A stretch of DNA of 64,000 nucleotides from Eledone cirrhosa (Eukaryota), in NCBI GenBank assembly GCA_964016885.1, contig OZ024761.1, positions 31,682,001-31,746,000 of the forward strand, in the 5' to 3' direction. Of the stretch, positions 59,893 through 64,000 are shown piece by piece. The notes under the pieces were generated by a model. It had not been told where the DNA came from and searched no databases. It worked only from the letters and a program-made list of their open reading frames with translations. A program made the position numbers and the translations under genes. Every line of letters starts with the position of its first letter. The first letter of the stretch is position 1.

Positions 59893-60067
59893 CCCTGTAA
59901 TAATGGCACACGCCCCAAAATCTCACGCAGGGGGATCAAACCCGTGACCTTATGATTTCGAAGTTAACTTCTTCCACCATTGAGTCACCTAATCAATAAA
60001 AATGGCCTCAAATGACTTTAGGAGGTTACATAGCTTGAGATTTTAATCAGTATTAACATATGTTTCA

Positions 60068-60967
60068 GTGTGTGTGTGTATGTGTGTAGGTCTGTGTATG
60101 TATGTATGTATGTATGTATGTATGTATGTGTATGTATGTGTGTGTATGTGTGTAGGTCTGTGTATGTATGTATGTGTATGTATGTATGTATGTGTATGTA
60201 TGTGTGTGTATGTGTGTAGGTCTGTGTATGTATGTATGTGTATGTATGTATGTATGTGTGTGTATGTGTGTAGGTCTGTGTATGTATGTATGTGTATGTA
60301 TGTGTGTGTATGTATGTAGGTTTGTGTGTTCTGGTTTATAATTTCACAAATGTTTGTCCGTGTGTGTGTGTATGTCTCTATCTGTATATGTGTGTATATG
60401 TTTCATTGTGTGACGGTGTATCTGTGTGTTTGTGTGACTGCATATATGTATGTGTCTGGATATATGCGTGTCTGCATGTGTGTGTGTTTGCTTGTGTGTG
60501 TTTTGTGTCTGGATATATGTGTGTCTGTATGTGTATGTCTGGATATGTGTTTGTATGTGTATGTCTGGATAAATGTGTTTGTGTGTGTATGTCTGGATAT
60601 GTATGTCTGTATGTGTATGTGTGTGTCTGGATATATGTGTATGTGTATGTCTGGATATATGTGTGTGTATGTGTGTGTCTAGATATGTGTGTGTGTATGT
60701 GTGTGTCTAGATATATATGTGTCTGTGTGTGTGTCTAGATATATGTGTGTGTGTATGTGTATGTCTGGATATATGTGTCTGTATGTGTGTGTTTGTATGT
60801 GTGACTGGATATATGTGTGTGTGTATGTATGTGTCTGGATATGTGTGTGTCTGTATGTGTGTGTGTGAGTCTGGATATGTGTCTGCATGTGTGTGCCTGT
60901 GTATATATGTATATGTGTATATGTGTATATATGTAACTGGGTTTGTGTGGCAACATAAATGTGTATC

Positions 60968-61020
<53 letters not shown>
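60068..61020. repeat. TG/TA-rich compound repeat with recurrent gtaggtctg and gtctggata motifs, ending in (CT)n
   Basis: Direct reading. Confidence 0.9.
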
Positions 61021-61023
<3 letters not shown>

Positions 61024-61366
61024 ATCACAGATAACAAAAACATTTATTTTTAAACTAACTTAACATTTTTTTATCAGATAAATATGTTATGACTGGGGAT
61101 TTTGTGTGTGTGTGTATGTGTATGTGCGTGAGTGTGTGTGTGTATGTGCGTGTGTGTGTGCGCGTGTGTGTGTGTGTGTGTTTGTGTGTGTTCGTGTATT
61201 GGATGGTTTCCTTCACTTTGTTTTTCAACTGTATTTCATATATATACATATTGACTTAGCTTCTAAAGCAATAACTTAAATAATTCTTAATAACAAAAAC
61301 AACAATTATACATAAAGAGAGAGAGAGGGGGGAGAGAACCGAAAGCAAGAGGACCTCCAGAGGTCG

Positions 61367-62003
61367 ACTGTAAAGTGGTCGTGATGGTGACATAGCAACA
61401 AATATCCAGTCCATACTGTAAAGTGGTCGTGTAGGTGTGACGACAAAAAGCACCCAGCCCACACTGTAAAATGGTTTGTATAGGTGTCACAACAAAAAGC
61501 ACCCACCCCACACTATAAAGTGGTCATGTAGGTGTCACGACAAAAAGCACTCGGTCCACACTATAAAGTGGTCATGTAGGTGTCACGACAAAAAGCACTC
61601 AGTCTACACTATAAAGTGGTCATGTAGATGTCGCAACAAAAAACACCCAGCCCACACTGTAATGTGGTCATGTAGGTTTCACGACAAAAAGCACCCAGCC
61701 CACACTATAAAGTGGTCATGTAGGTGTCACAACAAAAAGCACCCAGCCCACACTATAAAGTGGTCATGTAGGTGTCACGACAAAAAACACCCAGCCCACA
61801 CTGTAAAGTGGTCATAACAAAAAAGCACCCAGTACTCACTGTAAATGAAGTTGGCGTTAGGAAGGGCATCCAGCTGTTAGAAACCAAGTCAGAATCAGTT
61901 CTGTATGAACAAGACATGATCACCTAGCATTGATGACCTAGCATTGCCCACAGCAGGACAACCCGTCTCGCGTGGAAGATTAGACGTAAAATGGTGATGA
62001 TGA
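61367..62003 (+). repeat. 48-bp tandem array (~10 copies) amplified from a SINE internal segment, followed by the SINE 3' part
   Basis: ctataaagtggtc at 61561 and 61609; continues into gttggcgttaggaagggcatccagctg..gacgtaaaatggtgatgatgat. Confidence 0.8.
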
Positions 62004-62056
62004 TTATATATATATAATCATCTCTAATCTGCAAAATGTTTGCCGATGTTCTACTG

Positions 62057-62089
<33 letters not shown>

Positions 62090-62094
62090 GCATT

Positions 62095-62282
62095 AATTGG
62101 GAGATTAGAATTGCGGATCTTTACGTTTTGAGTTAAAATCCTGTCTAGGTTAGCTTTGCTTTTCAACCTTCCAAGGTCGATAAATTAAAGTACCAGTAAA
62201 GTACTGGGGGGGTATATATTTGACCTTATTTGACCTTCCCCTACCCCGTAAAACTGTTGACCTTATGTCAAAATTAGAAAAC
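62095..62282 (+). mobile_element. SINE family 1 (old, diverged)
   Basis: gagttaaaatcc..ctttgcttttcaacct..ggtcgataaattaaagtaccag..ccttatgtcaaaattagaaaac. Confidence 0.8.
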
Positions 62283-62292
62283 ATTTCCTTAC

Positions 62293-62409
62293 CTTTTTTC
62301 GGTTAAAGAAATATTTGGCAATATTTCCGAACGAGTTCAATAGTAAAATGACCACACTGACCACAGTGATTTTGGCCAAATATTCCTCCGAAATGTCCAG
62401 CTCAATTGA
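62293..62409 (-). CDS. SLC39A14: Probable ZIP exon (TM3): SIELDISEEYLAKITVVSVVILLLNSFGNIAKYFFNRKK
   Basis: tttcttctatttcag acceptor, AAG/GTAAGG donor, 117 bp phase 0-0, Y..K plus hydrophobic helix plus basic cap as expected before the ZIP His loop. Confidence 0.75.
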
Positions 62410-62713
62410 CTGAAATAGAAGAAATATATTCGATTATGGTAAAGAGAATATATACACTCAGTAGTAATGGGTGTATAATGGAGGATTACCAGATGAAAAG
62501 ACTTTCAGTACTTCCTGTGGCTCTATGGTTGTACAGCTGTGAGCAGTAGTCAGTCCATCTGTTTAGGATGTCCCGTTCTTCAGTCAGGCTTTTTCCTCTC
62601 CTTATCCTGTATGGTGGGAGTTCACCATTGCTTATATATATGGATATAAGTGTGTGTGTATCCCGGGTTCAATCGGGGTTAACCACAGTAAGTAAGGTAC
62701 TCAATACATAGCA

Positions 62714-62765
62714 GGCTTTCCTGATGATTTCCTTCGAATGAAACAGTTCTAGTCCTGTAGAAGCC
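62714..62765 (+). ncRNA. Type I hammerhead ribozyme, family A, preceded by its inverted tail (62660-62711)
   Basis: ggcuuuc-CUGAUGA-uuuc cuuc gaau-GAAA-cag uucuaguc cug-UA-gaagcc. Confidence 0.78.
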
Positions 62766-62775
62766 ATTTCTATAT

Positions 62776-62830
<55 letters not shown>

Positions 62831-62952
62831 AATATAGACATAGAATATTCGAAAATATTCTGTATGTTTATAATAAACATTTTGAAGACCTAATCGCTAT
62901 AGAATAGAATACGTCACGTATTACAATTAGATTCTCGATAAAAGCAAGGGAA

Positions 62953-62996
62953 GTAAATCTACGCGTTTCATTCTTATTAGAAATCGTCAGGACTAC
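62953..62996 (-). ncRNA. Minimal type I hammerhead (inverted unit)
   Basis: Reverse complement of 63304-63347. Confidence 0.8.
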
Positions 62997-63303
62997 ATAT
63001 CCAGTGCTTTCATCGAGAATGACACAGCTAGAGACTTATAGAATACTTAGCTGTGTACAGGAACTGGTTTGAAAGAGCGGTTGCCGGTCCGGCAGAAATT
63101 AGAAATTGGAATAAATGCTCTGAAATAGCGATATATATGTGAATATAGACATAGAATATTCGAAAATATTCTGTATGTTTATAATAAACATTTTGAAGAC
63201 CTAATCGCCGGACCGGCAACCGCTCTTTCAAACCAGTTCCTGTACACAGCTAAGTATTCTATAAGTCTCTAGCTGTGTCATTCTCGATGAAAGCACTGGA
63301 TAT

Positions 63304-63347
63304 GTAGTCCTGACGATTTCTAATAAGAATGAAACGCGTAGATTTAC
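63304..63347 (+). ncRNA. Minimal type I hammerhead with palindromic stem III
   Basis: guaguc-CUGACGA-u uucu aaua agaa u-GAAA-cgcg-UA-gauuuac; predicted cut after 63340. Confidence 0.82.
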
Positions 63348-63614
63348 TTCCCTTGCTTTTATCGAGAATCTAATTGTAATACGTGACGTATTCTATTCTA
63401 TAGCGATTAGGTCTTCAAAATGTTTATTATAAACATACAGAATATTTTCGAATATTCTATGTCTATATTCACATATATATCGCTATTTCAGAGCATTTAT
63501 TCCAATTTCTAATTTCTGCCGGACCGGCAACCGCTCTTTCAAACCAGTTCCTGTACACAGCTAAGTATTCTATAAGTCTCTAGCTGTGTCATTCTCGATG
63601 AAAGCACTGGATAT

Positions 63615-63658
63615 GTAGTCCTGACGATTTCTAATAAGAATGAAACGCGTAGATTTAC
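63615..63658 (+). ncRNA. Minimal type I hammerhead (unit 2)
   Basis: Identical to 63304-63347, +311. Confidence 0.82.
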
Positions 63659-63925
63659 TTCCCTTGCTTTTATCGAGAATCTAATTGTAATACGTGACGT
63701 ATTCTATTCTATAGCGATTAGGTCTTCAAAATGTTTATTATAAACATACAGAATATTTTCGAATATTCTATGTCTATATTCACATATATATCGCTATTTC
63801 AGAGCATTTATTCCAATTTCTAATTTCTGCCGGACCGGCAACCGCTCTTTCAAACCAGTTCCTGTACACAGCTAAGTATTCTATAAGTCTCTAGCTGTGT
63901 CATTCTCGATGAAAGCACTGGATAT

Positions 63926-63969
63926 GTAGTCCTGACGATTTCTAATAAGAATGAAACGCGTAGATTTAC
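63926..63969 (+). ncRNA. Minimal type I hammerhead (unit 3)
   Basis: Identical to 63304-63347, +622. Confidence 0.82.
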
Positions 63970-64000
63970 TTCCCTTGCTTTTATCGAGAATCTAATTGTA

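Follow-up and report, generated by a model that had tools for sequence, protein, structure and literature searches.

Two-armed insertions of a hammerhead-bearing tandem repeat in Eledone cirrhosa with a Penelope-like footprint

We have analysed a stretch of 64,000 nucleotides of Eledone cirrhosa DNA (the window), which ends inside one copy of a young, non-coding tandem repeat family. The family bears a predicted hammerhead ribozyme in its unit and occupies more than 1,000 places in the genome. Its copies are typically laid out as two opposed arrays, and we consider it probable that the family is a non-LTR retrozyme, inserted by the reverse transcriptase of a Penelope-like element (PLE) that rolled round a monomeric RNA circle.

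The insertion and its repeat unit

When the genome contig beyond the window is included, the whole insertion at this locus measures 2,553 bp, is set in (TA)n and contains eight hammerhead motifs. It is composed of a 389-bp minus arm and a plus arm of seven units, inside which the window ends; the plus arm is 2,166 nt long (6.96 units, with one single-base difference) and reaches (TA)n 1,372 bp beyond the window. A first-pass annotation had reported 311-bp units at 63207, 63518 and 63829, an inverted block of 1.25 units, a (TA)n setting and no coding capacity, and each of these descriptions holds. The units are mutually 100% identical at a spacing of 311 bp, the block at 62820–63208 is 389 nt long and 100% complementary, the left flank and the right end of the plus arm (outside the window) are both (TA)n, and the element has no ATG-initiated open reading frame (ORF) of at least 40 aa. 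The 3' end of the short arm is a 'short' end, at unit position 265–274, and blends into (TA)n at 62820–62829. Unit positions are counted from 63207, which is position 1. The features are as follows.

62781–62827, no strand: (TA)n target tract, left flank; sampled copies are TA-rich at both outer ends
62820–63208, minus: short arm, 389 nt (1.25 units), from the inverted-repeat match
62953–62996, minus: type I hammerhead motif of the short arm, predicted cut 62960/62959, positioned from the unit phase
63207–63208, no strand: inner joint of the arms, 2-nt microhomology (unit positions 197 and 1)
63207–64000 and onward to the equivalent of 65372, plus: long arm, ending at unit position 300 (the 'tail' end)
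63280–63295 with 63354–63369, plus: 16-bp clamp helix enclosing the hammerhead, from folding; holds the recurrent A>G sites 83 and 155
63304–63347, plus: type I hammerhead motif of unit 1, predicted cut after 63340
63615–63658, plus: hammerhead motif of unit 2, predicted cut after 63651
63926–63969, plus: hammerhead motif of unit 3, predicted cut after 63962
63400–63486, plus: 3' structured domain (unit 194–280), the most conserved part among sister families
63472–63506, plus: 'tail' segment (unit 266–300), internal copy in unit 1, between two putative reverse-transcription start sites

We infer that the 3' structured domain is the binding site of a helper protein.

Immediately to the left of the insertion (window 62660–62775) is a small element, likewise two-armed, of a different hammerhead-bearing family, family C (CUGAUGA-UUUC...GAAU-GAAAC), and the 2,553-bp insertion sits within the (TA)n flank of this neighbour. 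Family C copies at loci L126, L133 and L201 are short, with TA tracts at their ends. Unit positions 50–93 (window 63256–63299) resemble a decayed antisense family C hammerhead (E=8e-5), and an old inverted joint may have given rise to the unit. A dispersed repeat that contains 'taaagtaccagta' has tandem copies at window 40911–41670, 45032–45448 and 15134–15240 (periods 172, 202 and 33); it recurs at 62170–62240 and probably represents a common short interspersed element. At window 1–3128, 22964–24019, 28833–34042 and 61336–61863, there are large minisatellites with units of 40, 63 and 48 bp, together with a (TA)n-like tract of 5.2 kb.

By inspection, unit positions 98–141 form a type I hammerhead with a predicted cut after position 134. 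Stem I pairs 98–103 with 135–141, CUGACGA occupies 104–110 and GAAA 125–128, and palindromic ACGCGU and then GUA follow. These four motifs and the three plus-strand cuts listed above had been named in the first-pass annotation and are all in place. The clamp helix that it proposed has a mean pair probability of 0.95, and its series of hairpins is recovered with mean pair probabilities of 0.98 (acacagcta), 0.95 (gccgg), 0.89 (agaatatt) and 0.79 (aatacgt), the weaker members being atagcgat (0.60) and atgttta (0.41). The unit as a whole folds at -74.7 kcal/mol (z=-4.45), and none of 100 shuffles is as good. The opposite strand folds as stably (z=-4.39), so that folding alone leaves the strand unnamed.

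Certain properties of the motif count against the retrozyme reading: stem II consists of 4 bp above a U.U mismatch and has a mean ensemble probability of only 0.09, the minimum-energy fold is 3.8 kcal/mol more stable than the catalytic arrangement, and the G10.1-C11.1 pair of the canonical type I hammerhead is absent. The base of stem II is A-U instead of U.U in one sub-lineage, and stem I of the window's haplotype has a bulged U. Stem III forms only between two motifs, with a predicted intermolecular duplex of -9.5 kcal/mol. Metazoan type I motifs with a short palindromic helix III and cleavage as dimers have been described (PMC4209133), and a hammerhead with a U.U-based stem II cleaves in axolotl (PMC7229834). 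The Rfam scan of 60000–64000 returned zero hammerhead matches; for the 96-nt motif the only match was Hammerhead_HH9, below threshold at 10.4 bits (gathering score 52) and E=5.2.

The pattern of variation tells more about the motif. Over the 95 loci with two or more full units, array-wide variation hits 9 of the 44 motif positions and none of the 12 core bases (P=0.04); four single-unit changes fall within these 12 bases. The motif variants are found at N7, in loop II, as the change of U.U to A-U, or with the pairing of stem I kept. Among the sister families, family B keeps the core with new stems and has compensatory pairs in the clamp helix (4/13), and family D has further helix swaps, including a U3-A8 variant of the hammerhead core that has been described before (PMC4209133). 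Since array-wide changes spare the core and the sister families show compensation, the motif appears to be real.

These sister repeats are observed as follows. Family B is an older hammerhead repeat of ~315 nt, about 5–7% diverged (L050 2440–2870, L139–L168), with the same two ends, inverted arms and 2,764 first-look candidates. Family D is a related repeat with a longer stem III (L117 8052–8550, L084 10–412, L159 827–1080). Family E is a tandem hammerhead repeat of ~490–510 nt (CUGAYGAUAGCUAA...GAAACUAGUA) whose 3' hairpin layout is similar (L083 2627–5207, L130 9021–9585, L094 1837–2013).

Copy number and the two-armed footprint

Exact pattern matching finds 17,938 intact hammerhead motifs in the genome (3.0 Gb, with a repeat content of animal type), as well as 1,051 'tail' ends and 1,300 'short' ends; all reversed-pattern controls gave 0. 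This genome-wide count, which had been suggested as a check, agrees with the earlier proposal of a young, dispersed and stand-alone hammerhead-bearing tandem family, and the sampled loci are without an adjoining Penelope ORF. The unit is 310 nt long in most loci, 311 nt being the minority, and has a GC content of ~34%. Arrays of more than 8 kb occur, and arms reach 25 or more units. The family thereby shows the features that define non-LTR retrozymes, namely tandem units of 150–450 bp, GC below 50%, no LTR, no coding capacity, a predicted type I hammerhead in each unit and dispersal over many loci.

The unit, its main variants and its TA-joined ends are also contained in contigs from public sequencing runs. 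None of the matches listed for runs X1, X2 and X3 bridges the joint 63207–63208. Runs X4, X5 and X6, whose kind is unrecorded, have one 340-nt unit contig each, with a 30-nt terminal overlap in X6. Since tandem DNA and an RNA circle both yield such contigs, we have not used them as evidence.

The inverted block had been noticed before, but as an incidental trait; it is in fact the rule for the family, and it carries the strongest evidence for the mode of insertion. Our main sample takes the tail ends in order, the first 100 of 1,051, which all lie on contig C1; two opposed arrays are present in 91 of its 95 resolvable loci. An opposed arm ending at 255–274 is found at 89 of these 100 consecutive sites (41 at 265 and 30 at 274). 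The other 11 include two that are two-armed beyond the fetched stretch, four that are single-armed, two at gaps and three unclear ones. Insertions have a median length of 2,415 bp (n=91, two cut-off loci among them). For 20 short ends without an exact tail match, 13 have a full opposed arm ending at ~302–306, one has a remnant and six have none. Loci chosen by BLAST are two-armed in 17 of 18 cases; TA at one end was required by construction in the two pattern-based samples, but not in these 18.

In the sampled loci, the outer ends lie at 300–306 on one arm and at 255–274 on the other, and these two fixed ends are about 26–35 nt apart. As hallmarks of PLEs, Craig et al. (2021, PMC8557442) describe a tail of 30–40 bp at a single end together with an inverted, truncated partner. 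In vitro, both strands of AT-rich DNA are cut and extended by a PLE protein, whose two internal start sites on the RNA bound the tail of 30–40 nt (PMC11167929). The offset between the ends at 300 and at 255–274 therefore reads as such a tail footprint and argues for insertion by a PLE, and the inverted 5'-truncated partner and the TA/AT-rich target are present as well. Any target-site duplication is hidden by the (TA)n tracts. As internal starts require no RNA 3' end, a circle could also serve as template.

The inner ends of the arms behave differently from the outer ones. One clear inner joint is seen in 64 of 78 loci, none in 13 and two in one. The 128 inner ends occur throughout the unit; near the cut site there are 3, where 4.5 would be expected, so the phase of the joints is random. 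An overlap of at least 2 nt is found in 35 of 56 non-gapped joints, compared with 18% under random joining, which indicates microhomology, and inserted bases occur at eight joints. At locus L203 (5680–5950), ~270 nt of unrelated GC-rich sequence have been caught at the inner joint between the arms.

Haplotypes, A>G changes and routes of copying

We have compared 746 units from the 95 of 120 loci that contain two or more full units. There are 35 haplotypes, 24 of them seen only once. The same majority haplotype is found in both arms in 62 of 66 loci; the arms differ in the other four, at L230 by a whole haplotype. Single-unit changes number 89 (3.8e-4 per base) and favour T>C and G>A (30 against 15, p=0.022), a lean that fits wobble errors of a reverse transcriptase.

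The array-wide changes have another spectrum. Of 44 array-wide substitution events, 18 are A>G and 4 are T>C, compared with 6 and 15 of 80 single-unit changes (p=7e-4); actually, A>G is the rarest transition among the latter. Counted by distinct site, array-wide A>G and T>C stand at 10:4 (p=0.018). The spanning tree passes through one private haplotype and so contains two spurious G>A at site 42, which leave the A>G and T>C counts unaffected. Of the ten A>G sites, eight lie in paired positions. Recurrence on three to four backgrounds is seen at sites 83, 100 and 155, each of which follows a U, and site 100 lies in UAG; a preceding U, and UAG, are the preferred context of ADAR (PMC11334849). 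The window's own haplotype carries 83G. With the common 119 variant left out, the A>G change extends to every full unit in 19 of the 20 loci that have one, and sites 83, 100 and 155 show no A>G confined to a single unit.

RNA editing is expected to be partial in any one molecule, yet these changes are array-wide and in both arms. The best explanation is apparently that one edited unit was copied many times, and the A>G bias of the array-wide changes points to one edited RNA unit having been read repeatedly. Together with the haplotypes shared between arms, it lends indirect support to rolling-circle reverse transcription in trans, which had been put forward in the first-pass annotation. Selection for G.U pairs is not sufficient alone, since paired C offer the same wobble (34 C against 55 A among paired bases) but array-wide C>T is found at two sites only. 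The recurrent A>G could nevertheless come partly from such selection or from recombination between haplotypes. Against the single-circle reading, 14 partial variants in seven loci indicate that long arrays undergo turnover in place, and hence some of the homogeneity may arise in DNA. At L102, the tail arm has the A>G at 100 in its inner two units but not in its three outer ones, and all five units of the opposite arm have it; such a pattern would fit a template switch, gene conversion or editing during copying.

Based on the above, the following course of events can be proposed. The arrays would be transcribed, and neighbouring hammerheads would pair via ACGCGU and cut after unit position 134. 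A host ligase would close the 310/311-nt monomer into a circle, and ADAR would occasionally edit adenosines in its long helices. The PLE protein would bind the 3' domain, cut both strands of a (TA)n tract and begin cDNA synthesis at internal positions, ~300 for one DNA end and ~265–274 for the other. Each enzyme would circle the template for less than one to more than 25 turns, and end joining of the two cDNA ends would give the head-to-head arrays. For the stronger claim, that the arrays record two PLE reverse transcriptases, each primed on one end of the same (TA)n break, circling one and the same ribozyme-made RNA circle, with A-to-I edits in all units of both arms, we regard the chances as evenly balanced. 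If true, RNA editing would rank among the main sources of the family's heritable variation, and this genome would harbour an entire radiation of circle parasites.

The strongest competitor, which we consider unlikely but well worth weighing, is a two-sided PLE insertion from an uncut, linear read-through transcript of a long array, with unequal exchange and gene conversion making the units alike. In vitro, unprocessed RNA is the main template of the anole PLE and cleavage is dispensable for insertion (PMC11167929). The arrays of more than 8 kb are available as possible sources, inner ends that ignore the cut site fit a linear multimer equally well, and the partial variants, periodic as well as scattered, would be in-place turnover. 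A linear multimer should however leave patchy edits, whereas A>G is array-wide in nearly all loci concerned and rarest in single units; the private haplotypes are uniform, across inverted arms too; and 5' truncation by itself can only shorten arrays.

We find it quite improbable that the PLE enzyme jumped repeatedly between linear self-cleaved monomers, with no circle involved. Length variants do cluster at unit 136–138, just 3' of the predicted cut, and haplotypes are mixed in two loci (within an arm at L102 and between arms at L230). But inter-unit scars are absent at the cut site and arm ends show no excess there (the 3 of 128 above), and a pool of independently edited monomers should give mixed arrays, where most are uniform. 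Overall, that the family is a PLE-inserted, RNA-derived and non-autonomous repeat holds for the circle, the linear multimer and the jumping between monomers alike.

Candidate helpers and related elements

From the footprint, we infer that the helper is an autonomous PLE. The genome contains many ORFs with reverse transcriptase and GIY-YIG domains, a CxxxxCxxC linker and a DKG motif, some of them long open frames, and one PLE ORF family has repeated open frames of 796 aa. The linker and the DKG motif are assigned to Neptune/Nematis-type PLEs (Craig et al. 2021, PMC8557442). We scored the best 150 of 10,596 and the best 150 of 31,329 helper candidates. A 3' region matching the unit was found in none of the seven PLE ORF families inspected; the GIY-YIG, protein, BLAST and family A/B HMM searches returned sister non-coding families and zero autonomous 3' ends.

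In the linkage check named in the first-pass annotation, none of the 120 sampled loci is the terminal repeat of an autonomous Penelope. PLE-protein matches lie in the fetched stretch of eight of the 120, none continuous with the inner end of an arm, and no arm in the 120 is continuous with a PLE ORF, two of them abutting assembly gaps. It is thus very improbable that the units are only the pLTR of an autonomous PLE, present as 5'-truncated copies. A tail with inverted 5'-truncated copies is typical of PLEs, and L089 has a PLE ORF across an assembly gap, but ORF-free head-to-tail units, up to 25 or more in a row, and the dissimilar 3' regions of the inspected PLEs are against it. Scarcely credible, too, is a DNA satellite, miniature inverted element or assembly artefact with an incidental likeness to a hammerhead: the lack of a significant Rfam match and the equal folding of both strands would agree with it, but not the more than 1,000 dispersed copies with differing flanks and differing asymmetric joints, the strand-asymmetric mutation spectra of the family, the conserved core with compensatory changes across sister families, or the unit, variants and TA-joined ends in the public-run contigs.

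Non-LTR retrozymes, their proposed dependence on PLEs, the PLE tail and multicopy non-autonomous PLEs are already published. Metazoan non-LTR retrozymes (PMC7229834; 10.64898/2026.07.22.740005) share with the present family the tandem, low-GC, non-coding type I hammerhead units of ~300 nt, the short palindromic helix III, for which a dimer is predicted to be necessary, and PLEs in the same genome, proposed as helpers; the axolotl HHR_Amex2 (PMC7229834) also shares the U.U at the base of stem II. In the present family, by difference, nearly every insertion is head-to-head, with two fixed ends that bound a PLE tail, in (TA)n. The word 'inverted' is absent from the main text of PMC7229834, and we found no two-armed layout described in the text consulted of the preprint 10.64898/2026.07.22.740005; the supplements of both may show insertion ends. 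Expression, cleavage and circles have been shown for the published retrozymes (PMC7229834; 10.64898/2026.07.22.740005), whereas the present family is known from sequence alone. Matching pLTRs were found for the retrozymes of 10.64898/2026.07.22.740005, but none among the PLEs inspected here.

EN+ PLEs (PMC11167929, PMC8557442, PMC4209133) share the tail at one end, the inverted 5'-truncated partner, the microsatellite or AT-rich targets and a hammerhead with palindromic helix III, and circles have been proposed in the same papers as templates for their more-than-unit copying. Unlike them, the present family has no ORF, and its arms hold up to 25 or more whole units instead of partial tandems. 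The Chlamys elements such as MRC1 (Craig et al. 2021, PMC8557442) are likewise non-coding PLE dependants with multicopy head-to-tail insertions, but they are green-algal, mostly lack hammerheads and have a 3' end like that of their helpers (PMC8557442); the present family is animal and hammerhead-bearing, with a helper pointed to only by the footprint.

In the titles, abstracts and main texts that we consulted, we found neither two-armed retrozyme insertions with a PLE tail nor array-wide editing scars in retrozymes, and RNA editing is mentioned only as a possible cause of circRNA heterogeneity (PMC7229834). In the same literature, the return of retrozymes to the genome with a circle as template and a PLE as helper is proposed, without demonstration. 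The present family supplies the footprint of the helper with both of its start sites, as well as the target and the signature of a single re-read RNA unit, and it gives the existing in vitro PLE assay a defined 310-nt substrate with clear predictions. A general test for circular templates in genomes can also be suggested, in which one asks whether editing scars run through the whole array or are patchy. As a DNA-writing tool, a protein able to copy a small circle into the two sides of a break would likewise be of interest.

Some minor observations concern the PLEs of this genome. Hammerhead-like motifs with a palindromic stem III (AAGUACUU or ACCGGU) occur in the 3' regions of several PLE families (L122, L123, L125 and L129; L119, L120, L126 and L127; L136), and the motif of one PLE family shares the U.U at the base of stem II. 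ORFs of autonomous-type PLEs are also seen as head-to-head inverted pairs, like the arms of the retrozyme, at L124 (2995–6010) and L125 (3995–6190).
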